This document shows positions 3,336 to 53,510 of a stretch of DNA of 64,000 nt, in pieces. The stretch's first letter is position 1; each line of letters begins with the position of its first letter. Origin of the DNA: Candidatus Magasanikiibacteriota bacterium (GTDB lineage Bacteria > Patescibacteriota > Patescibacteriia > Magasanikbacterales > UBA922). A program made the translations under genes and the position numbers. The DNA is taken from the NCBI GenBank assembly GCA_041674805.1, contig JBAYVA010000001.1:125136-189135 (forward strand), read 5' to 3'. The notes under the pieces were generated by a model. The model made no database searches and was not told the DNA's origin. It was given only the letters and a program-made list of their open reading frames with translations.

Positions 3336-3405
3336 TTATCACTTGACACCATAGAGTGATAATAGTATAATATCACTGTAGATATAAGAGTGCTAATATT
3401 ATAAT
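3336..3405 (+). promoter_or_regulatory. hrcA promoter (TTGACA 3343-3348, 17-nt spacer, TATAAT 3366-3371) overlapped by two tandem CIRCE-like operators (3336-3362 and 3370-3396)
   Basis: TTATCACTT-N9-GAGTGATAA and ATATCACTG-N9-GAGTGCTAA versus the CIRCE consensus TTAGCACTC-N9-GAGTGCTAA. A second TATAAT lies at 3400-3405, 3 nt before the hrcA ATG. Confidence 0.6.
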
Positions 3406-3407
3406 CT

Positions 3408-4088
3408 ATGTTAGATGAAAGAAAAGCCAAAATTTTGGCTCTAATAATCGAAAAATATACGAAATCAGCTGAACCTATTGGATCCAGTTTTTTGGTTGAT
3501 GAATGTGATTTGGAACTTAGTGGTGCCACTCTTAGAAATGAAATGCGTGACTTGGAAGAATTGGGTTATTTGACTCATCCTCATACTTCATCTGGTCGTA
3601 TTCCGACTGAAATTGGTTACAAATACTATGTGGAAAATATCATGAAGGTAAAGACTATTGCCAAAAAAGTTGCCGAAGATTTCGATAGTGTGTCAGCTGA
3701 AAAAATAAATGATGAACTAAAAACTATTGCCAAAAATATTTCTGAAAAAACTGGCAACTCTGTGATTATTGCTTTTGGTCCTGGTTCACTTTATTACACT
3801 GGTATCAAAAATCTTTTTTCACAGCCTGAGTTTCATGATTATGCTTACATGGTTAGTGTTTCAACAATTTTTGATCAATGTGAAGATATGATTGGTGAGA
3901 TGTACAAAGCGATTGAAAGTGCTGAACCAAAAATTTTGATTGGTGCAGAAAATCCTTTTGGCAGTATGTGTGGACTAGTCGGAGCTAAACTAAAAAACAA
4001 CATTTTGTTTATGGTTTTAGGTCCTGTCCGAATGGATTATTCTACCAATTATACTTTGTTGGATTATTTACTAAAAAAATTTAATTAA
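3408..4088 (+). CDS. hrcA: heat-inducible transcription repressor HrcA (short, 226 aa)
   Basis: N-terminal winged helix: ERKAKILALIIEKYTKSAEPIGSSFL...SGATLRNEMRDLEELGYLTHPHTSSGRIPTEIGYKYYV. CIRCE sites lie upstream. Confidence 0.75.
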   Translation: MLDERKAKILALIIEKYTKSAEPIGSSFLVDECDLELSGATLRNEMRDLEELGYLTHPHTSSGRIPTEIGYKYYVENIMKVKTIAKKVAEDFDSVSAEKINDELKTIAKNISEKTGNSVIIAFGPGSLYYTGIKNLFSQPEFHDYAYMVSVSTIFDQCEDMIGEMYKAIESAEPKILIGAENPFGSMCGLVGAKLKNNILFMVLGPVRMDYSTNYTLLDYLLKKFN

Positions 4089-4096
4089 AAATATTT

Positions 4097-5017
4097 ATGT
4101 CTGAGGAAAATATGCAAGTTATCCCAAGTGTTGGAATGTATATAGAAAACAAAAAAGGTGAATTATTACTTGTAAAATCACACAAATGGGATGATAAATA
4201 TGCTGTACCAGGTGGAAAAATAAAATATGGTGAAACTGCGGTGCAAGCCGTTGAGCGAGAACTATATGAAGAAGTTGGACTGAAAGCAAAAAGTGTAGAG
4301 TTCGTAGATAATATAGACATGATAAAAGATCCAGAATTTATTTATAAACCAGAAGCACATTATGTTTCTCGAAGATTTCAAGTTATAGTTTCTAATACTG
4401 ATGTTGTCTTAAACAATGAAGCTGAAAGTTTTGAATGGGTTGCGCCAGAAGAAATTTTGAAAAGAGATGATGTAGTAACTATTGTCAAAGATTATGTAAA
4501 ACAACACATGCTTTCCAAAGAAAATAAGAAAACAAATAAAAAAGTATTAGAATTAGAAGAAAAAATAGAAGAATACAAATCAGGTTGGCAAAGAGCCCAA
4601 GCTGATTACAAAAATTTGCAAACTGAAATAGAAAATAAAAGAAGTGAATGGGTGAAGATGAGTGAGTTGCAAGTGTTGGAAGATTTTATTCCTGTGTATG
4701 ACAATTTCAAAAAAGCTTTTTCACACCATCCAGAGCTTGATAGCGAAAATGAAAAAGACAAAAAAGTAAAAAATTGGGTAGACGGAATTGGTTATATCAT
4801 GAAACAATTTAGTGATGTATTAAAAAGATTTGAAATAGAAGAAATAAAAACAGTAGGGGAGATGTTCAATCCAGAATTTCATGAAGCAGTCGGTGAAGAA
4901 GATTCAGAAGAAATAGAAGGTAAAATTTTGAGAGAAATAGATGTTGGTTATACTATGAAAGGAAAAGTGATAAAAGTCGCGAAAGTAATAATTTCCAAAA
5001 ATTCCAATAACAAATAA
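4097..5017 (+). CDS. grpE: NUDIX hydrolase domain fused to GrpE nucleotide-exchange factor
   Basis: Residues 1-140 carry a Nudix box (GGKIKYGETAVQAVERELYEEVGL). Residues 150-306 are GrpE (coiled coil LELEEKIEEYKSGWQRAQADYKNLQ, then GEMFNPEFHEAVG...KGKVIKVAKV). Single continuous ORF. Confidence 0.7.
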   Translation: MSEENMQVIPSVGMYIENKKGELLLVKSHKWDDKYAVPGGKIKYGETAVQAVERELYEEVGLKAKSVEFVDNIDMIKDPEFIYKPEAHYVSRRFQVIVSNTDVVLNNEAESFEWVAPEEILKRDDVVTIVKDYVKQHMLSKENKKTNKKVLELEEKIEEYKSGWQRAQADYKNLQTEIENKRSEWVKMSELQVLEDFIPVYDNFKKAFSHHPELDSENEKDKKVKNWVDGIGYIMKQFSDVLKRFEIEEIKTVGEMFNPEFHEAVGEEDSEEIEGKILREIDVGYTMKGKVIKVAKVIISKNSNNK

Positions 5018-5086: not shown

Positions 5087-5518
5087 ATGTTACCAAGACT
5101 ATGGGATCCATTCGATGATATGGATAATATGGTAAGAAATTTTCCTGCTCTTACCAACAACAATGATTTCAATCGTAAAGGCTTCGTGCCAGCCGTCGAC
5201 GTCTATGAGACAAAAGACGCTGTCGTAGTCGAGACCTTACTTCCTGGTGTCAATCCAGAGCAAGTAGAAGTCAGTGTAGAAAAAGGAGTTTTGACTATTC
5301 AAGGTGAAAGTCAAAGAGAACATGAAATTGATGAAAAAAATTATTATCGCAAAGAAGTGCGTGGTGGATCATTTTTCCGCCAAGTATCTTTGCCAGTTTC
5401 GGTCAAAGAAAATGAAGTAAGTGCTGAATTTGAAGATGGCATACTCAAAATTACTTGTCCAAAAGCTGAGGAAAAGAAAATGAATAAGGTGGATGTGAAG
5501 GTGATTAAAAAACAATAA
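5087..5518 (+). CDS. Hsp20/alpha-crystallin small heat-shock protein
   Basis: ACD motifs: PAVDVYETKDAVVVETLLPGVNPEQVEVSVEKGVLTIQGE...AEFEDGILKITCPK. Confidence 0.85.
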   Translation: MLPRLWDPFDDMDNMVRNFPALTNNNDFNRKGFVPAVDVYETKDAVVVETLLPGVNPEQVEVSVEKGVLTIQGESQREHEIDEKNYYRKEVRGGSFFRQVSLPVSVKENEVSAEFEDGILKITCPKAEEKKMNKVDVKVIKKQ

Positions 5519-5522
5519 TTCT

Positions 5523-5948
5523 ATGATAAATAGATTTGATCCAATATGGGAAGGTCATCAAAAAGATACTAATACTATAAATAAGTATTTACTTATTACA
5601 AGTAGATTATATACTATTGCCATTGTTGTTACTTCATTCTTTGTTAGAATTTTTCTTACTAATTTCAAATCAAGTGAGATAATGTCTGGTATTTTATTAG
5701 TTTCTTTCATGATTACTTCTGCGCTCCTTGTATATAATTTTTCACTTTATAGAGAATTAGCAAGTGTTTTAGTTATTGAAAAGTTAAGAAAAATAATGTT
5801 TTTCATTTGGTTGATTATTTTTTTTCTTTTTAACATATTCCAAATTATTACTTTGTTTGTGAATTATGGATGGTGGATGGTAGTGTTAAATATCATATGG
5901 GGTATAGTTGGTGATTTATTAATAAATAAAGTTATAAAAAAGAATTAG
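5523..5948 (+). CDS. hypothetical membrane protein (4 TM)
   Basis: Hydrophobic segments; starts 5 nt after the hsp20 stop. Confidence 0.4.
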   Translation: MINRFDPIWEGHQKDTNTINKYLLITSRLYTIAIVVTSFFVRIFLTNFKSSEIMSGILLVSFMITSALLVYNFSLYRELASVLVIEKLRKIMFFIWLIIFFLFNIFQIITLFVNYGWWMVVLNIIWGIVGDLLINKVIKKN

Positions 5949-6893: not shown

Positions 6894-6936
6894 ATTTTAT
6901 AAATAAAAAATAAACTAATTAAAATAATTTATATTT

Positions 6937-6977
6937 AAGAAAGATCCCTCGTCGTGCTTTCGCCGACTTCGGGATGA
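6937..6977 (+). promoter_or_regulatory. palindromic GC-rich leader motif, copy A (upstream of dnaK)
   Basis: AAGAAAGATCCCTCGTCG...CGACTTCGGGATGA ends 12 nt before the dnaK ATG. Same motif at 13956, 15877 and 51961. Confidence 0.45.
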
Positions 6978-6988
6978 AGTAAAAAAAT

Positions 6989-8926
6989 ATGTCAAAAATA
7001 TTAGGAATCGATCTAGGAACAACTAACTCATGTATGGCTATCATCGAAGGTGGTCAGCCAAAAGTGTTAGAAAACAAAGAAGGAAATCGTACTACTCCAT
7101 CTGTCGTGGCTATTTCCAAAACAGGTGAACGTCTTGTTGGGCAATTGGCTAAGCGTCAAGCTGTAACCAATCCTGGCAATACTTTGAATTCAATCAAGCG
7201 TCTTATTGGTCGCAGATTTGAAGACAAAGAAGTAAAAGATATTATAGAACATTCACCATATACTATTATCAAAGATGGCGAAAAATTGAAAATAAAAATG
7301 GGGGACAAAGAATATACACCTCCAGAAATTTCAGCCATGATTTTGCAAAAATTAAAAGCTGATGCCGAAGAAAAATTGGGAGAAAAAATTACAGAAGCTG
7401 TTATTACAGTTCCTGCATATTTCGATGATTCACAAAGACAGGCTACTATTGCTGCTGGTGAAATCGCAGGATTGAAAGTTGCTCGTATTATCAATGAACC
7501 AACTGCCGCTGCTTTTGCTTATGGCTTCGACAAAAAAGGTGACCAAAAAATAATGGTTTACGATTTGGGTGGTGGTACTTTCGATGTTTCAGTTTTGGAT
7601 ATCTCTCATGATGGCGAACAATCTACAGTAGAAGTTTTATCAACCAATGGTGATACACATCTTGGTGGTGACGACTTTGACAAAAAAGTTATTGAATGGA
7701 TTCTAGAAGAATTCAAAAAAACAGAAGGTATTGATTTGGCAAAAGATCCACTTTCACTGCAACGTGTCAAAGATGCTGCTGAAAAAGTAAAAATTGAACT
7801 TTCAAGTACTGTCGACGCTGAAATCAACGAACCATTTATTACTTCAGGTGCTGAAGGTCCAAAACATTTGAACTTGAAACTTAGTCGTGCTAAGTTGGAA
7901 GAGTTGGTAAATGATTTGGTAGAAAAAACTATGGGTCCAGTTAGAAAAGCTTTGGAAGATGCCAAAATGCAAAAAACTGAAATCAATGAAATCGTGCTAG
8001 TCGGTGGTATGACTCGTATGCCTCTTGTACAACAAAGTGTAGAAAAGTTTTTTGGTAAAAAACCAAACATTAGTGTCAATCCAGATGAAGTCGTCGCTGT
8101 TGGTGCTGCTATCCAAGCTGGACAATTGCAAGGTGACTTGGGCAAAGAAATTTTGCTTCTTGATGTCACTCCACTTTCATTAGGACTCGAAACTCTAGGT
8201 GGTGTATCTACCAAACTTATTGATAGAAATACAACTATTCCAACTAGTAAAACTCAAGTTTTCTCTACTGCTGCTGACAATCAGCCAAGTGTAGAAATTC
8301 ATGTTTTGCAAGGTGAACGTCAAATGGCAGTTGATAACAAAGCTCTTGGTAGATTTATGCTTGATGGTATTCCACCAGCTCCACGTGGCGTGCCACAAAT
8401 CGAAGTAAAATTTGATATTGATGCTAACGGTGTATTACAAGTATCTGCTAAAGACAAAGGAACTGGTAAAGAACAATCAATTCGTATCGAAGCTTCTTCT
8501 GGTTTATCTGATGAAGAAATAGAAAAAATGAAAAAAGATGCTGAAGCTCACGCTGACGAAGACAAGAAAAAACGTGAAATGATTGATATCAAAAATACAG
8601 CTGACACTATGATTTATACTACCGAAAAAATGATGAAAGATGTAGAAGAAAAGAAAATCGAAGTGACAGATGAAGAAAAACAAAAAGTAAATGATGCTTT
8701 GACAAAAATGAAAGAAGTCAAAGAAAAAGATGATATTGAAGAAATCAAAAAAGTTTCTGAAGAATTATCTACAGCTGCACAAGCTATTGGTATGAAGATG
8801 TATCAACAAGAACAAGCTCAACAGCAAGCAGGTAACAGTGAACAAAAAACAGGTGAACAACCAGCTGATGAAAAAAAGAATGAAGGTGAGTCTGTAGAGG
8901 GGGAAGTGGTTGATGGGGACAAATAG
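6989..8926 (+). CDS. dnaK: molecular chaperone DnaK (Hsp70)
   Basis: 645 aa. [26 protein letters not shown] and a full substrate-binding domain. Confidence 0.97.
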
Positions 8927-9065: not shown

Positions 9066-9674
9066 ATGAACGGAATGGAATCGTCTTTTTTGAAAGTTAT
9101 ACCAGAGGGAAAATTGGATGATGTGACTTTTGATGATTTAAAAGGTGTTTTGATGAAAGGTTGTGAAGATTTTTTTGAAAAATATTTTGCAGAAAAATTT
9201 TTTGGTAATAATAAAAAAACATCATCTCAATATTTAGATATTATTTCTGAACAAATTCACAATAGTGAAGAAAGTGTTCCAGAAGATTTGGACAAAAATT
9301 TTTATTTAGAAATAAAAAAAGTAATGAAAAAAGTTTTTTCTATTTTTAATATAGAAAATTTGCAAGAATTAGATAAAAATTTATTAGCTATTGAATCACA
9401 TATAAGTGAAACATTAAAAATTCAAGAATTTATTTTTACTTTGTTGTCGTATGTTGAAAAAGAATCAGAAGAAGTTAGAGAATTTGTGAGAGAACTGAGA
9501 GCTGAGATTGAAAGAGATGGTATTGGTGATATGGCAGGAATGTTAGAAGGTTTGGAGGACGTTTTTGGCTCTAAAGGTGAAAAAAAAGATGGAGAAGGTG
9601 AGGTAATAAAACTTTCAGAAAGAAGAAAACCAACTAATCCAGAAACAAATCCAAATGGTAATGGTAGAAAATAA
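9066..9674 (+). CDS. hypothetical acidic protein
   Basis: ORF in the dnaK-dnaJ interval; no recognisable motif. Confidence 0.4.
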   Translation: MNGMESSFLKVIPEGKLDDVTFDDLKGVLMKGCEDFFEKYFAEKFFGNNKKTSSQYLDIISEQIHNSEESVPEDLDKNFYLEIKKVMKKVFSIFNIENLQELDKNLLAIESHISETLKIQEFIFTLLSYVEKESEEVREFVRELRAEIERDGIGDMAGMLEGLEDVFGSKGEKKDGEGEVIKLSERRKPTNPETNPNGNGRK

Positions 9675-9694
9675 TTTATTTTTATAATAAAAAT

Positions 9695-9997
9695 ATGAAC
9701 AACCCACAACCACAAAACGAAAACAAAGGAATACAAATAAAAGTAACTGATGAAGTCTTGGCTGGTAAATATTCCAACATGGCGCAAATCTCTCACAATA
9801 GAGAAGAATTTGTGCTTGATTTCATGACAATACTGCCACCTGCTGGCACTCTAAATTCTCGTATTATCATGAGTCCAGGACATTACAAAAGAATGATCAA
9901 AGCTATGCAAGAAAATTTGCGTAGATATGAAGAAAGTTTTGGTGAAGTAAAAGAATCAAGTGAGCCTGAGACTATTCATGGGTTTCCTGTTAAGTAA
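9695..9997 (+). CDS. DUF3467-like protein
   Basis: The block YSNMAQISHNREEFVLDFMTILPP resembles the DUF3467 family. Confidence 0.45.
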   Translation: MNNPQPQNENKGIQIKVTDEVLAGKYSNMAQISHNREEFVLDFMTILPPAGTLNSRIIMSPGHYKRMIKAMQENLRRYEESFGEVKESSEPETIHGFPVK

Positions 9998-11624: not shown

Positions 11625-12716
11625 ATGTCCAAAGACTATTACAAAATTCTTGGTGTTGATAAAAGCGCTAGCAAAGACGAAATCAAAAAATCTTTTCGTA
11701 AGCTAGCTCACGAACATCACCCGGATAAAAAAACTGGAAACGAAGAAAAATTCAAAGAAATAAATGAAGCTTTTCAAATCTTAGGTGATGACACCAAACG
11801 TGCACAATACGATCAATATGGTTCTGATTTTGAACAACAGGGCGGTTTTGGTGGTGGTATGAATTGGAACGACTTCATGAACTCTACTCGTGGTCAAGGT
11901 GGTGGTTTTGGTGGAGCAGGATTCAACGGGATTGATTTGGGTGATATCTTTGGTGACATCTTTGGTGGCGGTAGAAGTAGTAGAAGAGAAGCCAAAGGAC
12001 AAGATATTCAAGTCACAGTGGAACTCACTTTTCGTGAAGCTATTTTTGGTGTAGAAAAAGAAGTAAGATTGACCAAGAATAATCCTTGTAAAACTTGTGA
12101 AGGCTCAGGAGCCGAGCCAGGAGCTGGTACAGAGACTTGTAGTGACTGTCGTGGTCAAGGACAAGTAAAACGTGTCCAACAGACCATTTTGGGGGCTATG
12201 CAGACTGTCGCGACTTGTCCCAAGTGTCAGGGTGCTGGCAAAATACCAAAACAAGCTTGTAAACATTGTAATGGACGTGGTATGGAGCGTAGTGAATCGA
12301 AATATAACGTCAAGATTCCCGCTGGTATTGCCGACGGTGAGATGATCAGACTAACTGGTAAAGGTGAATCTGGTGGCATTGGCGCTCATCCAGGCGACCT
12401 TTATATTCGTGTTCATGCGAAAAAAGAAAATGGTTTTGAAAGACAAGATTTTGATATTTTTACCGAAATTACTATTTCTTATCCGCAAGCAGTACTTGGC
12501 GACAAAGTAGAAATAGATACTCTAGAGGGTAAGAAAAAATTAGTCATTCCCGAAGGCACCACTTCTGGACAAAAATTCAAATTAAAAGCACTTGGTGTAC
12601 CGAGATTGCAACGTAGTGGACGAGGGGATCAGTATGTGACAGTGATTATTGATGTGCCAAAAAAAGTTGATCGTAAGACAAAGAAACTTCTTGAAGATTT
12701 GAGGGAAATGTTATAG
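11625..12716 (+). CDS. dnaJ: molecular chaperone DnaJ
   Basis: J domain (DYYKILGVDKSASKDEIKKSFRKLAHEHHPD), G/F-rich region, four CxxCxGxG zinc-finger repeats. Confidence 0.93.
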   Translation: MSKDYYKILGVDKSASKDEIKKSFRKLAHEHHPDKKTGNEEKFKEINEAFQILGDDTKRAQYDQYGSDFEQQGGFGGGMNWNDFMNSTRGQGGGFGGAGFNGIDLGDIFGDIFGGGRSSRREAKGQDIQVTVELTFREAIFGVEKEVRLTKNNPCKTCEGSGAEPGAGTETCSDCRGQGQVKRVQQTILGAMQTVATCPKCQGAGKIPKQACKHCNGRGMERSESKYNVKIPAGIADGEMIRLTGKGESGGIGAHPGDLYIRVHAKKENGFERQDFDIFTEITISYPQAVLGDKVEIDTLEGKKKLVIPEGTTSGQKFKLKALGVPRLQRSGRGDQYVTVIIDVPKKVDRKTKKLLEDLREML

Positions 12717-12764
12717 AAGGCTTGAAATGCCTGAAAAGCTAAAAAGGCTTAAAAGGCTATTTTG
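12717..12764. repeat. phased A-tract GGCTTAAAAG-type repeat (family copy)
   Basis: GAAGGCTTGAAATGCCTGAAAAGCTAAAAAGGCTTAAAAGGCT. Confidence 0.6.
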
Positions 12765-13395: not shown

Positions 13396-13800
13396 TTACA
13401 TGTTACGTGAATCAAGAACCTTATTCACTTCAGCATCTGCTTCTTTATTGCCAGCACGCAAAATATGTTTGATATTAACTTTTTTGAATTGTTGCATTTC
13501 ATTCCAAGCTTTGATAAATAATTTTTGAATGGTTGGCTCTTTTACTTTCCAATGTCTATTTAGTTGTTCGCAAACAAGCTTGCTGTCTACTATACAATCT
13601 ACTTCGTCGGCTCCTAGCTCTTTGGCTTTTTTGAGACCAGAAATAATAGCCATGTATTCGGCATAGTTATTAGTTTGCTTACCCAAATATTCACCATAAT
13701 TGGCGACATTTTGTCCTTCTTCATTTTTGATTACAATGCCTGTGGCAGATGGTCCCGGGTTGCCTCGTGAGCCACCGTCGGTATATAGGTATAATTTCAT
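13396..13800 (-). CDS. rnhA: ribonuclease HI
   Basis: LYTDGGSRGNPGP...NNYAEYMAIISGL...DSKLV...ILRAGNKEAD. Confidence 0.8.
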   Translation of the reverse strand: MKLYLYTDGGSRGNPGPSATGIVIKNEEGQNVANYGEYLGKQTNNYAEYMAIISGLKKAKELGADEVDCIVDSKLVCEQLNRHWKVKEPTIQKLFIKAWNEMQQFKKVNIKHILRAGNKEADAEVNKVLDSRNM

Positions 13801-13907
13801 AGTGTACTATAATCTCGAAGCGTAGCGAGAGATCTTTCTCAGCAAACGCTATTTTAATTAATTAATCGTTAATTGATTCTAAAAGACTTCAGAATCAATT
13901 AGCGTTT

Positions 13908-15746
13908 TTACTTTCCTAAAAATTTTTGTTTAAGAAACCTGCCTGCCGGTAGGCTGGGATCCCTCGTCGTATTCTCGACTCGGGATGATTTATGCAAATC
14001 AACTATCGTAAGTTGAAGCTCCCTATTCCCATTCCACTCATTCAAATCAATTTCAAACACTATATCTATTTTATCACCAATTCGCAAAATTTTACACCAA
14101 TTGATTTCACCTTCTTTATCACAAAGACTCCAGCCAATGGTTTTGCGGATTTTGTTGTCTTGTTTGACTGTCAATTTCAAATGTTTGGCGTCTTTGCCGA
14201 CTGTCGTCATGTCAAAGATTTCTACTTCGCGAGCCAGATATTTTGGTCGGTCGTTGTTCATACCAAAAGGTTTGAATTGTTCTAGCAAATCAAACAATTC
14301 CCAATCAACTTCTGTCAGTCTTAGTTCGGCATCTATTTTGATAGTTGAACGCATGTCTAGATCTTTGGTTTTTTCATTATACTTTTCTATCATGTGTGCT
14401 TTGAAATCTGCTAGTTGGTCTTTGTTTGCCAAAGTGAAACCACAGGCCATCGGATGTCCGCCATATTTGAGAAACAAATCAGCTTTTTCTTGGAAAGTCT
14501 CAATAATATTGAAGCCTTCAATACTTCGGCCTGAACCCATTATCTCTTTTTTATTTTCTGACATTACCAAAGTTGGTTTGTAATATTGTTGAACGATTCT
14601 GCCAGCAATAAGTCCGACTAAGCCACCTGGCCAATCTTTGCCCACGACAAAAAGTACGGGTTTGTCCTTTTGGTCTTTTTCGATTTGTTCAATTGCTTTT
14701 TTTAGTAATTCCTCGGTAATTTCTCTACGTTCTTTGTTGTTTTGATCCAGTTCAAAAGCAAGATCAATAGCGTCGGTAGCTCTATCAGTCATCATGAGAT
14801 TGTAGGCAACGTTGGCATGTTTTATTCTGCCAGCAGCATTTATTCGAGGAGCAATTTGGAAACCAATAGTGTAGGCATCAAGATTTTTTTTCATACTGCC
14901 ATCTTGTTCTATGATGCGAGCTTCCATCAAAAGTTTTTGCATGCCGATTCTTTTGGTTTTGTTCAAAACTAGTAATCCATATTTGGTTAGAGTTCTTGAT
15001 TCACCAATCAGTGGTACCATGTCAGCCACGCTAGAAACAGCTACCATATCTAGTAACCATTTTTCGTGAGCTTCATGTTTTTCGCCGTTTGCTAGTAGTT
15101 CATGTTTTTCTTTGTGTTTGATAAGCAAGGCTTGCATCAGTTTGAAAGCCACACCGCCACCAGACAGATTTTTGTCAGGATAAGTTTCTGTAGAAATCTT
15201 AGGATGAATTATAGCAAAAGCTTTTGGTAGTTGCGGAGGAATAGTATGATGATCGGTAATAATCACATCTACTTTTTGCTCATTGGCAAAATCAACTTCT
15301 TTGGTATTACTAATGCCACAATCACAAGTGATGATAAGTTTGGCCCCTTCATTTTTGAGTTCAGTGATAGCTCGTGTATTCAAGCCGTAGCCATCAGTTT
15401 CACGATGGGGGAGAAAAGCGTCAACATTATCATAACCCATGGCTTTGATAGTAGAAACAAGAATAACGGAAGCCGAGACACCATCAGCATCGTAATCACC
15501 ATAGACGATTATTTTTTCTTTTTTGTCTATCGCTTTCATGATTCTCTTGACTGTCTTTTTCATGTCATGAAACAAATAAGGATCATGAATATCTTGGCTG
15601 TAATCTGGATTCAAAAATTCGTCTATATCTTTTTGGGTACGCATGTTTCTGTGGTACAACAAAGAAGCTACGACTTTTGGTAGCTCAGGAAATTCTTCAA
15701 AAAAAGATTGAGGAGGGGATTCGAGTATTTTCCAGGTTTTTTGCAT
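13908..15746 (-). CDS. recJ: single-stranded-DNA-specific exonuclease RecJ
   Basis: DHH (YGDYDADGVSAS, ITCDCGI, DHH) and DHHA1 (GGGHPMACG) motifs plus a C-terminal OB region. The last ~25 codons read through palindromic motif copy C. Confidence 0.85.
   Translation of the reverse strand: MQKTWKILESPPQSFFEEFPELPKVVASLLYHRNMRTQKDIDEFLNPDYSQDIHDPYLFHDMKKTVKRIMKAIDKKEKIIVYGDYDADGVSASVILVSTIKAMGYDNVDAFLPHRETDGYGLNTRAITELKNEGAKLIITCDCGISNTKEVDFANEQKVDVIITDHHTIPPQLPKAFAIIHPKISTETYPDKNLSGGGVAFKLMQALLIKHKEKHELLANGEKHEAHEKWLLDMVAVSSVADMVPLIGESRTLTKYGLLVLNKTKRIGMQKLLMEARIIEQDGSMKKNLDAYTIGFQIAPRINAAGRIKHANVAYNLMMTDRATDAIDLAFELDQNNKERREITEELLKKAIEQIEKDQKDKPVLFVVGKDWPGGLVGLIAGRIVQQYYKPTLVMSENKKEIMGSGRSIEGFNIIETFQEKADLFLKYGGHPMACGFTLANKDQLADFKAHMIEKYNEKTKDLDMRSTIKIDAELRLTEVDWELFDLLEQFKPFGMNNDRPKYLAREVEIFDMTTVGKDAKHLKLTVKQDNKIRKTIGWSLCDKEGEINWCKILRIGDKIDIVFEIDLNEWNGNRELQLTIVDLHKSSRVENTTRDPSLPAGRFLKQKFLGK
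13956..13988. promoter_or_regulatory. palindromic GC-rich motif, copy C (inside the recJ 3' end)
   Basis: GGGATCCCTCGTCGTATTCTCGACTCGGGATGA. Confidence 0.4.
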
Positions 15747-15876
15747 AGTTCACACGTCATCTTGAGCTGAGAATACAGCGAAAGATCTTTCCTGAATTAA
15801 AACTTATTTATTTAATTGATTTTCTTAGACGAAAATTTTCGTTTTCAATGTATACCTATTCATCCACTTTCATCTT

Positions 15877-15932
15877 AAGAAAGATCCCTCATTCAATTTC
15901 TTCGTACCTCAGAAATTTCATTTCGGGATGAA
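15877..15932 (+). promoter_or_regulatory. palindromic motif, copy D (variant with a 32-nt inner insert)
   Basis: AAGAAAGATCCCTC-[32 nt]-TCGGGATGA, in the intergenic region between the NUDIX gene and recJ. Confidence 0.3.
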
Positions 15933-16040
15933 TTACTAAAAAGTACTAAACATCGGCATGATAGTAAAAAATATCATACTGATAACAGCAATGATTGAGA
16001 TTATTGTCCAAAGGACTTTCATTTTTTTTCCGTACATAGT

Positions 16041-16088
16041 AAAAGGCTTACAAAGCTTACGAGGCTGACAAGGCCTACAAGGCTTTTA
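16041..16088. repeat. A-tract repeat family copy (GGCTTACAAAG variant)
   Basis: AAAAGGCTTACAAAGCTTACGAGGCTGACAAGGCCTACAAGGCTTTTA. Confidence 0.5.
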
Positions 16089-16090
16089 AT

Positions 16091-16516
16091 TTATTTGTTA
16101 TTTAAATTTATTGCAATTTTTAAAGCATTACGTGCATCATCATGGCTTAATTTATTAATTGCGTCTTTAACAGGAAACCAATTACCATCTATGAATCCTT
16201 CAGAACTGTTTGGAACAATTGTTTGTTGTTTTTTTGTTAAGAAACAATGAACTCTGATTACCTTGAGAGCTTTTTCACCATCAAAATAAAATGAAAATTC
16301 TGTAACAAAGCCAAGGTGTTCATCATTTGAAATAATAACCTTAGTTTCTTCTTCGACTTCACGAATAGCAGTTTGAACTTCATTTTCACCTTTTTCAACA
16401 TGACCTTTTGGTAATACCCATTCGTTTTCATTATTTTGAAGCAAAAGAACATCCATTTCATCATGTGAATGTTTTTTATAAAAAACTATGCCCATTGCTG
16501 ATGTTTTTTTCTTCAT
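16091..16516 (-). CDS. NUDIX hydrolase
   Basis: Nudix box LPKGHVEKGENEVQTAIREVEEETKV. Confidence 0.75.
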   Translation of the reverse strand: MKKKTSAMGIVFYKKHSHDEMDVLLLQNNENEWVLPKGHVEKGENEVQTAIREVEEETKVIISNDEHLGFVTEFSFYFDGEKALKVIRVHCFLTKKQQTIVPNSSEGFIDGNWFPVKDAINKLSHDDARNALKIAINLNNK

Positions 16517-22057: not shown

Positions 22058-22141
22058 AAGGCCTAAAAGGCTTAAAATGCTTGAAAAGCTGAAAAAGCCT
22101 TTTAAGCCTTTTGGGCATTTTAAGCCTTTCAAGCTTTTTTT
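22058..22141. repeat. A-tract repeat copy arranged as a long imperfect palindrome (forward units then reverse units)
   Basis: AAGGCCTAAAAGGCTTAAAATGCTTGAAAAGCTGAAAAAGCCTTTTAAGCCTTTTGGGCATTTTAAGCCTTTCAAGC. Confidence 0.6.
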
Positions 22142-23500
22142 ATGCATATAAAATTCTGCGGAGCCGACGAGGGCGTTACTGGTTCTTGTCATCTTTTGGA
22201 TACTGGCAAAATGAAGATACTCATTGATTGTGGGATGTTTCAAGGTGGAGATTTCAATGAAGGAAGAAATCATGATGTGTTTCCTTTTGATCCAAAAGAT
22301 ATTGATGTTTTGTTGGTTACTCACGGTCATTTAGATCATATTGGACGTATTCCAAAATTAGTAAAAGAAGGTTTTGCTGGCAAAATTTACTCTACCAAAG
22401 CGACTCAAGAATTTATGCCTCTTATTTGGTATGATGCTTACAATATTATGTCTTATGACAATCGTAAATTTGGTTATCCTGTTTTGTTTAATGAAGTAGA
22501 TATTGCTGAAGCTCAAGCTCTTTGTCATGGTCTAGATTATCATGAAGAATTGGATTTGGGTCATGATGTCAAAGCTGTTTGGAAAGATGCTGGACATATT
22601 TTTGGTTCAGCTTTTATTGAAATTACAGTTGATGGCAAAAAAATTGCTTTTTCTGGTGATTTGGGAAATGAACAAGTTCCAATTCTCAAAGATACAGAAA
22701 GTTTGAGTGACGATGTTACTTTGGTTGTCTGTGAATCTACTTATGGTAATCGTTTACATGAAGATATAGATACCAGAAAAAGTGTTATTTCTAATTTAAT
22801 TTTGGAAGGTATCAAACGTGGTGGTACTATTATGATTCCAGCTTTTTCACTTGAACGTACTCAAGAACTTTTGTATGAATTGAATCAGTTGAGTGAATAT
22901 GATAATACTTTGCCTCAGGTACCAATTTTCTTGGATAGTCCTTTGGCAATTGATGCTACCAAAGTTTACAAAAAATATGCTGAGTATTATGATAAAGCAG
23001 CTTTTGATTTGCATATGTCTGGAGATGATTTTTTACATTTTCCTCAATTACAAAATACTTATAGTAAACGTGAATCTCAAAAAATAAACAATACTCCTGG
23101 ACCAAAAATTATTATTTCAGGTGCAGGTATGATGAATGGCGGCAGAATTTTGCATCATGCTTTACGTTATTTATCAGATTCTTTGTCTACTCTTATGATT
23201 GTTGGTTATCAAGCAAATGGTACTTTGGGTAGAAGGCTTTTGGAAGGTGAAAAACATGTAAAAGTTATGGGTACAGATGTTGATGTCAGATGTGAAATAA
23301 AAGCCATTGGTGCTTTGTCAGCTCATGGTGATCAAGCAAAATTGTTGAAGTGGCTTGGCACTGGCAAAAAAGTCAAAAAAGTTTTTTGTGTACATGGTGA
23401 AGGCGACGCTTTGACTACTTTTGCAGACAAAATAAAAACTGATTTGAAAAAAGAAGCTTATATTGCTAAGTATGATGAAGTGGTGGAAATAAAGGCTTGA
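22142..23500 (+). CDS. rnj: MBL-fold beta-CASP ribonuclease (RNase J-like)
   Basis: HGHLDHIG metallo-beta-lactamase motif and a beta-CASP region. 452 aa, shorter than canonical RNase J. Confidence 0.7.
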   Translation: MHIKFCGADEGVTGSCHLLDTGKMKILIDCGMFQGGDFNEGRNHDVFPFDPKDIDVLLVTHGHLDHIGRIPKLVKEGFAGKIYSTKATQEFMPLIWYDAYNIMSYDNRKFGYPVLFNEVDIAEAQALCHGLDYHEELDLGHDVKAVWKDAGHIFGSAFIEITVDGKKIAFSGDLGNEQVPILKDTESLSDDVTLVVCESTYGNRLHEDIDTRKSVISNLILEGIKRGGTIMIPAFSLERTQELLYELNQLSEYDNTLPQVPIFLDSPLAIDATKVYKKYAEYYDKAAFDLHMSGDDFLHFPQLQNTYSKRESQKINNTPGPKIIISGAGMMNGGRILHHALRYLSDSLSTLMIVGYQANGTLGRRLLEGEKHVKVMGTDVDVRCEIKAIGALSAHGDQAKLLKWLGTGKKVKKVFCVHGEGDALTTFADKIKTDLKKEAYIAKYDEVVEIKA

Positions 23501-23530
23501 AAGGCTTAAAAAGCTTAAAATGCTCGAAAG
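23491..23530. repeat. A-tract repeat copy
   Basis: AAAGGCTTGAAAGGCTTAAAAAGCTTAAAATGCTCGAAAGG. Confidence 0.6.
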
Positions 23531-23562
23531 GCAATCTTTGTACTAAAAGATTGCCTTTTTTA
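23528..23562 (+). terminator. rho-independent terminator
   Basis: GGCAATCTTT-gtactaa-AAGATTGCC followed by TTTTTT. Confidence 0.7.
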
Positions 23563-30175: not shown

Positions 30176-30277
30176 ATTTTCATTAAATCATAAAATCACT
30201 TGATTTTACATAATGTCACAAATTCGGTGATTAAAGCATTTTAAGTTTTTTAAGCTTTTGTGTTATAATAAATCAAT

Positions 30278-33650: not shown

Positions 33651-33796
33651 ATAATAAAAAGTCTTAAATTGATTATAATTTTAAAATTTTATTTTTGATT
33701 TAGGATTTAGGATCTCGTATTTTTTATTTTTCGCTAATTTATTGACTTTTCTTATTATTTCCTATATAATGTCAACAATTAAATAACAAAAGCATT

Positions 33797-33835
33797 TCTA
33801 GCCTTTCAGGCATTTTCAGCTTTTTAAGCATTTTT
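33797..33835. repeat. A-tract repeat copy, reverse orientation
   Basis: TCTAGCCTTTCAGGCATTTTCAGCTTTTTAAGCATTTTT. Confidence 0.55.
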
Positions 33836-43399: not shown

Positions 43400-43449
43400 A
43401 AGGCTTAAAAGGCCAGAAAAGCTTGAAAGGCTCAAAAGGCCTTTTTTGT
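43400..43449. repeat. A-tract repeat copy ending in an AAAAGGCCTTTT palindrome (acts as terminator)
   Basis: CAAGGCTTAAAAGGCCAGAAAAGCTTGAAAGGCTCAAAAGGCCTTTTTT. Confidence 0.6.
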
Positions 43450-50496: not shown

Positions 50497-50548
50497 TTGA
50501 AAATGCTTAAAAGGCTTAAAATGCTGGAAAAGCTAGAAAGGCTAATTA
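50497..50548. repeat. A-tract repeat copy
   Basis: GAAAATGCTTAAAAGGCTTAAAATGCTGGAAAAGCTAGAAAGGCT. Confidence 0.6.
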
Positions 50549-51508: not shown

Positions 51509-51558
51509 TTGTTTAAGTTTTGTTTCAATGCTATAATACCTATACCTGGGGTATAGGT
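51509..51558 (+). promoter_or_regulatory. csoR promoter (TTGTTT-N17-TATAAT) with a perfect 9-bp inverted-repeat operator ACCTATACC-TGG-GGTATAGGT immediately after the -10
   Basis: -35 at 51509-51514, -10 at 51532-51537, operator at 51538-51558. It resembles CsoR-type GC-cored pseudo-palindromes. Confidence 0.5.
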
Positions 51559-51582: not shown

Positions 51583-51867
51583 ATGCAAACAAATTTAAGT
51601 CCAAACAAACAAAAAGCTTTACTCAATGCCAAAAAAGCTTATACCTCACTTGGTAAAATTATGAAAATGTTGGAAGAAAATAAATATTGTGTAGATATTA
51701 TGCAACAAAATTTGGCAGTAATAGGACTCTTAAAATCTGCCAATAATTTACTTTTGGAAGGTCATCTAAAATCTTGTTTCAAAAATGCGATTGTTAGTAA
51801 CGATGACGTCAAACAAGAAGAAAAAATTCAAGAGATTATCAAAGTTACGAAGTTGTCACAGAAATAG
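51583..51867 (+). CDS. csoR: CsoR/RcnR-family metal-sensing transcriptional repressor
   Basis: YCVDIMQQ (Cys), EGHLKSC (His/Cys), DUF156 helical core. Start trimmed to the ATG at 51583; the upstream extension translates the operator. Confidence 0.6.
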   Translation: MQTNLSPNKQKALLNAKKAYTSLGKIMKMLEENKYCVDIMQQNLAVIGLLKSANNLLLEGHLKSCFKNAIVSNDDVKQEEKIQEIIKVTKLSQK

Positions 51868-51960
51868 TAATTATCAAATAACAATTAATAACTAATAATT
51901 AATTTAATTTAAAATTTTATTTAGTTTGAAATATTTTGTTAAATAAATAAGTATAATTTT

Positions 51961-51997
51961 AAGAAAGATCCCTCGTCGTATTCTCGACTCGGGATTA
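51961..51997 (+). promoter_or_regulatory. palindromic GC-rich leader motif, copy B (upstream of the HMA membrane-protein gene)
   Basis: AAGAAAGATCCCTCGTCGTATTCTCGACTCGGGATTA, directly after a TATAAT and 12 nt before the ATG. Confidence 0.45.
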
Positions 51998-52008
51998 TAT
52001 AAAAAACT

Positions 52009-53358
52009 ATGAGCCAGTACAAAAAAATCTATATCAATGGTATGACTTGTGTGTCGTGCGAGCATCTTATTTCTGAAGATGTAAAAAAAATACCAAACGT
52101 TGAGAAAGTAGAAGTCTCACACAAGACTCAAATTGCGCAAGTCTATTTTTCAAACGAAAAACCAGATAGTCAAGAAATAATCAAGACGATTGAAAAATTG
52201 GGTTATAGCGCTTCCGAAAATCCGATTGACAAAAAAGAAAAGAAAAACAAAGCGACAGGTGCACAGTGGGCTTGGTCACTTTTTATTGTTTTTTGTATTT
52301 ATCTAGTTTATAAATACTTTTCTTGGATCGGAGTTTTTGATTGGATTCAAATTGATTCCAAAAATATTGGTTATGGTGCTGCTTTTCTCATCGGTATTGT
52401 GGCTTCAATGTCTACTTGTCTGGCTGTTGTTGGAGCGGTGGTTATGTCTTTTGGTGCCAAATACAAAACTGTAGAAAATAAGTTTAGCAAAAATGCCAAA
52501 CCTCATTTACTTTTTCATGCTGGACGTATCGGAAGTTTTTTCTTGTTGGGTGGATTGCTAGGGATTCTTGGCAACTTCGTCCAATTTTCAGCAAGTGTAC
52601 TTAGTATCTTTACTATTTTGATTGCTCTTATACTTTTCTGGCTGGCCTTAAATATTTTGGGATTTTTGCCATCGATGACAACTCTAGGGATTCACATGCC
52701 AAAAAAAAGTATGGGTGTTTGGAATAAATTGAAAGATTCGGAACATGCCATGGCTCCGATTCTTTTGGGAGCTTTTACTTTTTTCTTGCCTTGTGGTTTC
52801 ACTCAGAGCATGCAACTTTTTGCCGTTAGTTCGGGGAATTTTTGGGTCGGTGGTCTGACTTTGGCTATTTTTGCTCTTGGAACTAGTCCAATATTATTTA
52901 GTATTGGGATGGCGAGTAGTAAAGCTAGTAGCAAAAAAAATGTGGTGATGCAAAAAGTAATTGGTTTTATTATTCTTGCTTTTGCTTTTTATACTTTGTC
53001 ATCTGGATTAGCTGTTCGTGGTATTGGTTTGACTGATTTTTTGAAAAATACAAATGCACAAAGTAATTCTGCAGTATCTATCGTAAATTCAGAAGGTGTG
53101 CAAGTAGTTAAAATGGCGGTGGAATATAGTGGTTACAATCCTGAAGTGATAAAAATAAAAGCAGGTGTGCCAGTGCGTTGGGAAATAGATGGTAAACAAG
53201 TGACTGGTTGTACTAGTGAAATTGTGGTGCCGGATTTGAATATTAAGAAAAAATTAAATCAAGGTTTAAATATTGTAGAATTTACAGCAACAGAAAAAGG
53301 AACTTTGAATTTTAGTTGTTGGATGGGGATGGTGAGAGGGAAGTTTATTGTGGAATAG
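52009..53358 (+). CDS. HMA-domain / DsbD_2-like (TauE-CcdA-like) membrane / C-terminal cupredoxin-like fusion protein
   Basis: N-terminal GMTCVSCEHL; TM region with paired Cys (SMSTC, FLPCGF); C-terminus NPEVIKIKAGVPVRWEIDGKQVTGCTSE...FSCWMGM. Confidence 0.65.
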   Translation: MSQYKKIYINGMTCVSCEHLISEDVKKIPNVEKVEVSHKTQIAQVYFSNEKPDSQEIIKTIEKLGYSASENPIDKKEKKNKATGAQWAWSLFIVFCIYLVYKYFSWIGVFDWIQIDSKNIGYGAAFLIGIVASMSTCLAVVGAVVMSFGAKYKTVENKFSKNAKPHLLFHAGRIGSFFLLGGLLGILGNFVQFSASVLSIFTILIALILFWLALNILGFLPSMTTLGIHMPKKSMGVWNKLKDSEHAMAPILLGAFTFFLPCGFTQSMQLFAVSSGNFWVGGLTLAIFALGTSPILFSIGMASSKASSKKNVVMQKVIGFIILAFAFYTLSSGLAVRGIGLTDFLKNTNAQSNSAVSIVNSEGVQVVKMAVEYSGYNPEVIKIKAGVPVRWEIDGKQVTGCTSEIVVPDLNIKKKLNQGLNIVEFTATEKGTLNFSCWMGMVRGKFIVE

Positions 53359-53371
53359 TCCTGAATTGGTT

Positions 53372-53465
53372 CTCCCCCTAGTAGGGGGAGTTAGAGGGGG
53401 TCTATCTTTGAGCTAGACGTTTTATCTTGCTAAAGACCCCTCCTAGCCTCCCCTAATAGGGGAGG
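53372..53465 (+). other. cluster of three GC-rich hairpins between the copper genes
   Basis: CTCCCCC-TAGTA-GGGGGAG (53372-53390), GAGGGGGTCT...AGACCCCTC (53394-53442), CCTCCCC-TAATA-GGGGAGG (53447-53465). Confidence 0.5.
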
Positions 53466-53510
53466 AAATCGTTAAGTAAATTTAAAATTTAAAATTTTAT
53501 AAAAAATCTT

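Follow-up and report, generated by a model that had tools for sequence, protein, structure and literature searches.

A 64 kb stretch of contig JBAYVA010000001.1 from a Candidatus Magasanikiibacteriota genome (assembly GCA_041674805.1), referred to below as the window, carries six copies of a short palindromic module that folds into a hairpin with covarying stems and lies at gene boundaries. The reading we favor, at a probability of about 0.5, is that the module is a REP-like palindromic repeat kept as transcript-boundary hairpins, which would form a 5'-terminal stem-loop when read one way and a terminator or 3' stabilizer when read the other way. The observations that bear on it are the copies themselves, their fold and covariation, the statistics of their position, their retention at orthologous sites, and their copying and turnover.

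A covariance model (R1) was built from 45 diverse family members, with copies C and D outside the seed alignment, and was run with filters off. Scanning the window returned exactly six copies (E <= 8e-5), the next match having an E value of 0.19. The sequence GATCCCTC occurs four times in the window against 0.58 expected, and none of 100 shuffles reached four. A previous description made from the letters alone (the sequence-only reading) had listed four GC-rich palindromes, A to D; all four are present, and the two that were missed, E and F, lie on the minus strand, where they were first spotted by reading the upstream regions of genes. Relatives were collected from the GTDB species set with the pattern AAGAAAGATCCCTC-N8-38-TCGGGAT, which returned at least 118 stretches (loci numbered with the prefix L), with ~8 matches expected by chance by our own estimate. 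Copy density is six in the 64 kb window and 53 matches in 186 kb of related loci. Among the genomes compared, STC_93, a Patescibacteria metagenome-assembled genome (MAG), is ~95% identical to the window across syntenic genes, and several Candidatus Magasanikbacteria MAGs are 70%-83% identical. Orientation follows the neighboring gene, with A and B on the plus strand before plus-strand genes and E and F on the minus strand before minus-strand genes (leader copies), and with C and D on the strand opposite to their genes (tail copies). A and B are singletons, and E/C and F/D form divergent pairs; C and D serve E and F as tail partners in inverted orientation. At each of these two gene boundaries, the order is thus gene end, tail hairpin, spacer, leader hairpin, and start of the next gene. 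The copies and the features that touch them are as follows, with lengths in nucleotides (nt).

6930-6935, plus strand: -10-like box TATATT, 1 nt upstream of copy A, read from the sequence; presumed promoter function
6937-6978, plus strand: copy A, leader; R1 39.2 bits, and folded
13809-13840, minus strand: copy E, leader; R1 30.1 bits
13867-13904, no strand assigned: palindromic spacer between E and C, CGTTAATTGATTCTAAAAGACTTCAGAATCAATTAGCG; each arm holds the motif TAGAATCAATTAACG, found nowhere else in the window
13932-13989 (R1 match 13958-13989), plus strand: copy C, tail relative to recJ on the minus strand; 26.9 bits
13938-13957, no strand assigned: nested 20-nt palindrome CCTGCCTGCCGGTAGGCTGG in copy C, at its AAGAAA/GATCCC junction; missing in the orthologous copy of STC_93
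15756-15793, minus strand: copy F, leader; R1 43.9 bits, and folded
15877-15932, plus strand: copy D, tail; R1 36.6 bits, and folded
51952-51957, plus strand: putative -10-like box TATAAT, 3 nt upstream of copy B, from sequence and recurrence in relatives
51961-51998, plus strand: copy B, leader; R1 45.7 bits, and folded

All six copies fold into a 5-bp outer stem (AU plus a triplet), a 2x2 or 2x3 UC/UC internal loop, and a variable apical hairpin. The consensus is RRGAAAG-AU-NNN-UC-(variable hairpin)-UC-N'N'N'-AU-GAC, with a module length of 30-55 nt. Copy A consists of AAGAAAG, an AUCCC/GGGAU outer stem, a UC/UUC loop, and a GUCG..CGAC inner stem with a GC-UUUC-GC tip, and folding confirmed the ATCCC/GGGAT stem, TC/TC internal loop, and inner stem drawn previously. 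The outer-stem triplets in the window are CCC/GGG in A-D, CUC/GAG in E, and CUU/AAG in F. Copy E (GAGAAAGATCTCTCGCTACGCTTCGAGAT) pairs AUCUC with GAGAU behind a GAGAAAG prefix, and copy F (AGGAAAGATCTTTCGCTGTATTCTCAGCTCAAGAT) has AGGAAAG, an AUCUU/AAGAU stem, and a GCUG..CAGC inner stem. The inner stem of copy D is swapped for AAUUUCU..AGAAAUU, a 32-nt replacement hairpin that had been recognized correctly. Copy C had been described as lacking the prefix; its AAGAAA is present at 13932-13937 and is parted from GATCCC by the nested palindrome. On the recJ mRNA, copy C reads AUCCC-GA-GUCG..CGAC-GA-GGGAU, followed by the insert and UUUCUUAA.

The outer stem varies by compensatory change. Triplets found outside the window include UUC/GAA, UCC/GGA, CCU/AGG, and UCU/AGA, and a search anchored on the flanks, with pairing not required, recovered 8 distinct compensatory variants against 1-2 mismatched ones. 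In an alignment of 45 sequences (A3), 85% of cells pair compared to 77% in shuffles, none of 500 shuffles reached 85%, and pairing drops to 26%-50% once the partner is slid; because the seeds were chosen with pairing required, A3 overstates the signal for the outer stem. The apical hairpins are interchangeable (GUCG-UAUUCU-CGAC, GUCG-U-GCUUUCGC-CGAC, AAUUUCU..AGAAAUU, and CCGCC..GGCGG), with inserts of up to ~45 nt. Six copies with covarying stems agree with the earlier suggestion of a dispersed structured palindromic element. The antisense (tail) fold is on average 1.5-1.8 kcal/mol more stable than the leader fold, and the tail orientation is the more stable one in 36 of 43 Magasanik-like copies and 27 of 33 from other phyla. 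RNA of the tail strand has a tandem GA/GA mismatch and GNA or GNRA loops, followed by CUUUCUUAA.

In the window, the hairpins of copies A and B end 13 nt before a start codon, that of dnaK (ATG at 6989) and that of a membrane-protein gene with HMA, DsbD_2, and cupredoxin domains (ATG at 52009); 10-12 nt had been given before. Copy E ends 11 nt before the ATG of an RNase H gene (13800), and copy F ends 12 nt before that of recJ (15746). Copy D has its GGGATGA end 4 nt away from the stop of a hydrophobic open reading frame (ORF) of 33 aa, which is conserved and lies on the minus strand (15936-16037). RecJ has 612 aa, of which the last ~24 come from copy C, and the translation of this copy as a C-terminal tail, first pointed out in the sequence-only reading, is supported by a Pfam RecJ_OB match that stops at residue 583 of 612 and by homologues that are normally 585-590 aa long and end in ..TIVDLKKxx before the stop.

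A position census covered 59 model matches in Magasanik-like loci and the window. The ATG of a long same-strand ORF lies 10-17 nt past the hairpin in 31 of them (mode 11-13), and ~13 others point the other way, with their GGGATGAC end overlapping or abutting the stop codon of an opposite-strand gene. Canonical Magasanik-like copies show leader spacing in 19 of 28 cases (68%), compared to 2.2% of random positions in the same loci. Missing covariation and random placement relative to genes had been named in advance as outcomes that would speak against the element; compensatory stems and this excess were found. Among the matches listed, leader spacing occurs in 0 of 78 Dialister copies and 2 of 29 in other phyla, and the fixed 10-17 nt distance to the start codon is confined to the Magasanikbacteria lineage. 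In leader copies of relatives, a -10-like TAnnnT ends 0-2 nt before AAGAAAG, with T at -1 in 90%, and TAGAATCAATTAACG stands ~26-30 nt upstream of many of them (L014, L024, L039, and L109). In some genomes, a conserved ~40-nt stretch, GGGATCTGTAGACCCTG..AAAAAGTCTTT, precedes TAGAATCAATTAACG. With both of these upstream of a leader, the repeated unit can be a ~170-nt cassette.

Products encoded behind leader copies were identified with Pfam as DnaK, RecJ, RNase H, and the HMA protein; others, judged from sequence, are LysA-, GatB-, RecA-, MetK-, PyrG-, Tdk-, NifU-, DUF59-, glutaredoxin-, ZnuB-, TrmH-, FtsX-, glycosyltransferase-, and HAD-like. These ~20 unrelated housekeeping genes have no functional theme and form no regulon, which excludes a regulon operator; a protein-binding operator had been proposed earlier. 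Copies before dnaK and a copper-cluster gene might be taken for a gene-specific switch, either an RNA thermometer for dnaK, as the sequence-only reading had suggested, or a copper- or stress-responsive operator. Such a switch is highly improbable. When A and B are folded, the hairpin leaves both the AUG and the 13 nt before it unpaired with itself; there is no Shine-Dalgarno sequence to sequester; and the hairpin also precedes LysA-, GatB-, RecA-, MetK-, PyrG-, and Tdk-like genes. CIRCE-like sites lie before hrcA, and a CsoR-type palindrome (51538-51558) lies before csoR and is distinct from the module, as had been argued. Two named candidates were accordingly rejected: a thermometer of the ROSE or fourU type, since the hairpin of A and B pairs with neither AUG nor a Shine-Dalgarno sequence, and a CIRCE/HrcA operator (TTAGCACTC-N9-GAGTGCTAA), which has no match at copy A and CIRCE-like sites only before hrcA.

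Upstream regions were read for ~55 long window ORFs, and nearly all lack a Shine-Dalgarno sequence; these regions are A/T-rich, with a frequent ..A(A/C)CT ATG context. A literature search on Patescibacteria and Shine-Dalgarno returned nothing relevant. In such a genome, the lineage-specific spacing of 10-17 nt could indicate a translation-initiation element for mRNAs without Shine-Dalgarno sequences, in which the hairpin base (-12 to -14) would dock where the SD-antiSD (Shine-Dalgarno/anti-Shine-Dalgarno) helix normally sits, or AAGAAAG/GAUCC would pair with CUUUCU and GGAUC of the 16S 3' tail and position the 30S subunit. The 16S tail usual in bacteria, GGAUCACCUCCUUUCU, could pair with AGAAAG and GAUCC by complementarity; this host may have a different tail. 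We consider this explanation improbable, because most window genes initiate without a hairpin, AGAAAG is not enriched before other start codons in the window, the same module works reversed at stop codons, and the family occurs without fixed spacing in phyla that use Shine-Dalgarno sequences.

Under the reading of transcript-boundary hairpins, the module would belong to a REP-like intergenic repeat family that is copied around genomes, usually as inverted pairs, and would be kept at transcription-unit boundaries in a genome nearly devoid of Shine-Dalgarno sequences. A 5'-terminal stem-loop above an open start region protects mRNA from 5'-end-dependent decay. Leader copies (A, B, E, and F) would begin 0-3 nt past a -10-like box; with such a box just before AAGAAAG, transcription would begin within AAGAAAG and the mRNA would open with the hairpin, after which 11-13 unstructured, A/U-rich nt would lead to the AUG. 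The stem-loop may thus shield the mRNA from this decay while the start region stays fixed and open. Tail copies (C and D) would place the more stable hairpin and CUUUCUUAA on or next to the stop codon, where CUUUCUUAA, which is terminator-like, would also supply the TAA stop, and the unit could act as an intrinsic terminator or 3'-end stabilizer. A pair (D-spacer-F or C-spacer-E) would then mark where one transcript ends and where the next, with its capped start, begins, the spacer between them bearing the promoter. We infer the transcript ends and any effect on stability or termination. The geometry of a 5'-leader element, as in the earlier proposal, is supported for A and B, and extends to E and F, as sense-strand copies after a -10-like box and just before an ATG; it does not hold for C and D, which are inverted tail copies. 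A leaderless mRNA with a -10 between hairpin and ATG was considered and rejected, as no TAnnnT recurs consistently between the hairpin and the ATG, a distance of 11-13 nt.

Several points weigh against this proposal. The transcript start rests on an AT-rich -10-like box, and such boxes arise easily at the 32% GC of the window; copies E, C, and D have no convincing -10 directly upstream. A simple consensus terminator scan flagged neither C nor D on the minus strand, and in several relatives, CUGUAGAC rather than a U tract follows the tail copies. Because the antisense fold is more stable, the TC/TC loop looks optimized for the other strand or for single-stranded DNA. A generic stabilizer does not account for the more than 21 nt that distant phyla have in common; such conservation suggests recognition by some factor. 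The absence of a leader from dnaK and recJ in some relatives indicates that the leader is dispensable. In DNA this rich in AT, scanning for consensus promoters and terminators gave no useful information.

Syntenic loci reached via RecJ homologues (L119, 84% RecJ identity; L120, 66%; L121, 62%) retain orthologous copies with compensatory stem changes across RecJ identities of 62%-84%. The recJ tail hairpin is kept in STC_93, L119, and L120, with a variant in which AUCCC/GGGAU becomes AUCCU/AGGAU. The leader of the RNase H gene is identical in L119, changes from AUCUC/GAGAU to AUUCU/AGAAU in L120, and is absent in STC_93; in L120, the inner hairpins of this leader and of the recJ tail differ. 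The recJ leader changes from AUCUU to AUCCU/AGGAU in L119 and is absent in STC_93, L120, and L121. The dnaK leader is present in L111 and L121 (with a different inner hairpin or an AUUCC/GGAAU stem) and absent in L119 and L120. L119 has a tail/leader pair between grpE and hsp20, of which the hairpin after grpE resembles copy D. Orthologues of copy B occur in L083 (same inner stem) and L062 (inner CUG-UAUUUCAU-CAG). Inner hairpins are freely swapped between orthologous sites.

Identical copies of 35-39 nt also occur at unrelated loci. Copy B is identical to the recJ-tail copy of STC_93 and to the leader of a NifU-like gene in L014, and copy A is identical to the leaders of a DUF59-like gene in L014 and an FtsX-like gene in L027. 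The recJ-tail copy of STC_93 equals copy C minus its 20-nt insert. Copies E, F, and D are missing in the 95%-identical STC_93, where the intergenic DNA is replaced. Element-encoded RecJ tails were found in the window (612 aa), in STC_93 (598 aa, ..HKSSRVENTTRDLS before the stop), and in a 68%-identical homologue (..CMSSRVSPQATRDLS before the stop), and RecJ homologues of intermediate identity (83%-90%) have none; element-derived tails occur in two lineages parted by lineages without them. These comparisons suggest that copying and turnover go along with a structural constraint under which copies are retained for long.

The pattern could also come from a mobile palindrome that is purely selfish or neutral, either REP/REPIN-like or like a miniature inverted-repeat transposable element (MITE), and that lies near gene ends only through insertion preference and very short intergenic regions, with no benefit to the host. 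A small palindromic mobile repeat had been offered before, and it also fits the identical copies at unrelated loci, the presence or absence of copies between 95%-identical genomes, the 20-nt palindrome nested in copy C, the element-derived RecJ tails in separate lineages, and a family found in many phyla, with dozens of copies per genome and inverted doublets that resemble REPINs. In its purely selfish form, we regard this explanation as possible but doubtful, given the orthologous retention with compensatory stem changes at RecJ identities of 62%-84% and the strict orientation and ATG spacing (68% against 2.2%). When the 1,867 ORFs of the 118 loci were clustered all against all, with window ORFs not screened for Y1_Tnp (PF01797), no transposase-like family, including the REP-associated tyrosine transposase (RAYT), recurred near copies across phyla. 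Searches of plasmid, phage, and IMG/VR collections found no hairpin copies. No target-site duplication is visible at the nested 20-nt insertion or at the E/F/D polymorphic sites, and no parent insertion sequence was found among the ORFs of the 118 loci; a MITE would be expected to have terminal inverted repeats with such a duplication and a parent insertion sequence with matching ends. The one Y1_Tnp (IS200/RAYT-type) gene seen, between dnaJ and dnaK in L119 (14256-14621), is stop-interrupted and degenerate, and its flanks (13990-14640) hold different hairpins, GTCCCAGAGGGAC / GTCCCTCTGGGAC, a repeat that is absent from the window.

The family reaches well beyond this lineage. Hosts among the matches listed are Magasanikbacteria, other Patescibacteria, Dialister, Omnitrophota, Reyranella, Rhodospirillales, Rickettsiales, Verrucomicrobia, Bacteroidota, Bdellovibrionota, Binatia, and others, with Alphaproteobacteria included. 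Dialister genomes have dozens of copies each, an isolate genome with many copies is among the hosts, and the DNA flanking the copies has the composition of the respective host. More than 21 conserved bases are common to distant phyla, and the 3' extension GGGATGAC is conserved too. Outside Magasanikbacteria, the usual unit among the matches listed is an inverted pair, GTCATCCCGA..GAGGGATCTTTCTT, spacer, AAGAAAGATCCCTC..TCGGGATGAC, which is the rule in Omnitrophota, Alphaproteobacteria, and Dialister. The spacer is 10-25 nt long, or ~100 nt in Dialister, sometimes in tandem arrays of ~250 nt. The Dialister hairpin is embedded in a ~250-nt unit with an inverted variant copy (AUUUC/GAAAU; L108 1300-2100, and L079, L102, L116, and L093), and 2-3 of these units, which are bordered by AGTGACT-like heptamer repeats, stand in tandem.

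Conservation of sequence beyond structure, with the base and loop fixed and the apical hairpin free to vary, could reflect a DNA-level site, at which a protein (e.g., a Y1/HUH enzyme, a recombinase, or a replication or priming factor) recognizes the flanks and the TC/TC (GA/GA) loop on a single-stranded or cruciform hairpin, with RNA effects secondary. The antisense strand has GCGNAGC or GCGAAAGC loops flanked by tandem GA/GA, and such loops are classic, very stable DNA mini-hairpins. We judge a DNA-level site unlikely, since no protein family recurs near the copies across phyla in the 118 loci, GIY-YIG neighbors are only occasional (9 in 118 loci), and orientation tracks the adjacent gene and not one chromosome strand. 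At similarly long odds, the hairpin base (AAGAAAG-AUCCC-UC...UC-GGGAU-GAC) may have been kept in at least eight phyla via a conserved recognizing factor and recruited in Magasanikbacteria as a general start-site device, either an SD-antiSD stand-in or a 16S-tail pairing, placing the 30S subunit 12-13 nt downstream.

Rfam at the gathering threshold gave no match to the hairpin and only two tRNA-Gln genes in the window; E-value scans of copy A and a Dialister unit gave chance-level matches only (12-16 bits). A full-text literature search by the core sequence and its variants returned unrelated primer matches only. Hammerhead, twister, pistol, kink-turn, and C/D-box identities were rejected because their core motifs are absent and Rfam gives no support. 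A CRISPR repeat was rejected for lack of regular spacing, and an invertible promoter switch because of the short spacers (75-90 nt) and the palindromic sequence of the one between E and C.

Other observations were made on the family loci. A 20-nt perfect palindrome, CCTGCCTGCCGGCAGGCAGG, occurs in Omnitrophota and Bdellovibrionales loci (L025 7595-7614, L084 5516-5535, and L099 2462-2481), and slightly diverged copies are inserted at the same AAGAAA|GATCC junction in two Magasanikbacteria genomes (window 13938-13957 and L109 approx. 5600-5625, where the insert follows AAGAAA downstream of the hairpin match at 5560); it appears to be a very small mobile palindrome in its own right. In Magasanik-like MAGs and a Rickettsiales MAG (L009, L014, L024, L063, and L065), some copies have a small (~105-aa) GIY-YIG nuclease gene (PF01541) immediately upstream, the ORF in L063 running into the hairpin (..ERSLACARDDKGKKA before the stop). 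One more, in the Dialister locus L094, has no hairpin within 60 nt of its stop. As a mobilizing partner, GIY-YIG was judged incidental, with 9 genes in 118 loci and none in the window. Two sources appear to hold mislabeled contigs: a "Fusicatenibacter saccharivorans" bin (CAVBQN01) with Dialister-type repeat units, and a "Gammaproteobacteria" MAG (CAYXGV01) with Magasanikbacteria-like composition, genes, and leader architecture.

Loci of likely mislabeled contigs: L038, L052, L053, L093, L106-L108; L009, L020, L072, L074, L095

The genes that adjoin the copies, and the chaperone and copper clusters to which some of them belong, were assigned with Pfam.

3408-4088, plus strand: hrcA
4097-5017, plus strand: NUDIX-GrpE fusion gene
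5087-5518, plus strand: hsp20
6989-8926, plus strand: dnaK
11625-12716, plus strand: dnaJ
13396-13800, minus strand: RNase H gene
13908-15746, minus strand: recJ
16091-16516, minus strand: NUDIX gene
51583-51867, plus strand: csoR
52009-53358, plus strand: HMA + DsbD_2 + cupredoxin membrane-protein gene
53511-55649, plus strand: P-type ATPase gene

Two CIRCE-like inverted repeats (3336-3362 and 3370-3396), each with 3 mismatches to TTAGCACTC-N9-GAGTGCTAA, lie directly upstream of hrcA and are likely the heat-shock control point of the hrcA-grpE-hsp20...dnaK cluster. GrpE (306 aa) carries an N-terminal NUDIX domain, a fusion that is also annotated in L120 and not in L119 or L121. Many window genes have a TATAAT-like box 0-11 nt before the ATG and are possibly expressed from leaderless mRNAs. 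A small ORF upstream of recJ is conserved in three genomes and encodes a hydrophobic, MKVLWTIISIIAVISMIFFTIMPMFSTF-like peptide of 33 aa here and 28-35 aa in relatives; it is probably a real small membrane-protein gene. A second intergenic repeat family, unrelated to the hairpin, consists of a tandem 9-nt unit (AAGGCTTAN / AAGCCTTTT) with 3-5 copies per array, often adjoining a start or stop codon. A third palindromic repeat type, a GC-rich hairpin composite (CTCCCCCTAGTAGGGGGAG, GAGGGGGTCT..AGACCCCTC, CCTCCCCTAATAGGGGAGG), lies at 53368-53467 between the HMA membrane-protein and P-type ATPase genes.

Small hydrophobic ORF, by sequence comparison: window 15936-16037 (minus strand), L119 approx. 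9660-9770, L121 approx. 9915-9995
9-nt tandem arrays, in at least eight intergenic regions: 12717-12758, 16043-16085, 22058-22139, 23491-23532, 30234-30259, 33790-33834, 43400-43440, 50500-50543

Small palindromic repeats are usually treated as lineage-specific clutter, but this hairpin family keeps more than 21 bases across distant phyla, and in one lineage of the candidate phyla radiation (CPR), it is fixed at gene boundaries with covarying stems. If leaders do form mRNA 5' ends, the module would be a reusable expression cassette, a promoter-proximal cap hairpin with an open start, for a host that initiates without Shine-Dalgarno sequences. Gene expression in CPR bacteria is almost unstudied because these bacteria are uncultured. 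For annotation, the element creates false C-terminal extensions (RecJ of 612 against ~588 aa) and spurious small ORFs, and a covariance model of the hairpin would improve gene-boundary calls in Patescibacteria MAGs.

Known repeat systems share some of these features. REPs can stabilize upstream mRNA. Like REP/BIME/REPIN elements of Enterobacteria and Pseudomonas, the hairpin is a short imperfect extragenic palindrome with many copies, often in inverted doublets with a spacer, that folds in single-stranded DNA or RNA and spreads within genomes (PMC3116915). REPINs are inverted REP doublets linked to RAYT (PMC3116915), whereas for the hairpin no RAYT was found next to copies in the 118 loci, and it has no GTAG-type 5' tetranucleotide. 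REP families are genus- or species-specific, whereas the hairpin core is common to several phyla and, in Magasanikbacteria, stands as a single unit at a fixed distance from the start codon. Correia elements (CREE/NEMIS) of Neisseria are likewise small, gene-adjoining, strain-variable inverted repeats with end promoters and hairpin RNA that affects neighbors (PMC2649163, PMC10969869), but they are 100-150 bp long, have a TA target duplication, IHF sites, and RNase III processing, none of which was seen for the hairpin, and occur in Neisseria only. ERIC/IRU and the pneumococcal SPRITE, BOX, and RUP are intergenic palindromes transcribed with neighboring genes; ERIC effects on mRNA stability depend on orientation, and SPRITE resembles a rho-independent terminator, as does the tail orientation of the hairpin (PMC3049150, PMC10969869). 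These differ in sequence, size, and narrow host range, and no report gives any of them a fixed start-codon distance of 10-17 nt.

Rickettsia palindromic elements (RPE) also become part of ORFs (PMC10969869), as do copy C and its relatives, which add 10-24 residues to RecJ (..SSRV..TRDLS before the stop). RPE are ~150 bp and lie in frame inside genes, whereas the hairpin only replaces the last recJ codons and supplies the stop. The leaders of E. coli ompA and Bacillus ermC and aprE have a stable hairpin a few nt from the 5' end, upstream of an open initiation region. This geometry is the one predicted for A, B, E, and F, but those leaders are unique to single genes and not a dispersed family, and the 5' end here is predicted. 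Elhai et al. reportedly described, in 2008, cyanobacterial small dispersed repeats (SDR), palindromic units of ~20-27 nt that insert into other repeats. The nested 20-nt CCTGCCTGCCGGCAGGCAGG unit of copy C would resemble SDR in this respect, although sequences and taxa differ. SDR are mentioned in PMC3116915. Compared to all of these systems, the hairpin is unusual in a core common to several phyla, a modular apical hairpin that accepts nested palindromes, and a fixed start-codon spacing in one lineage without Shine-Dalgarno sequences.

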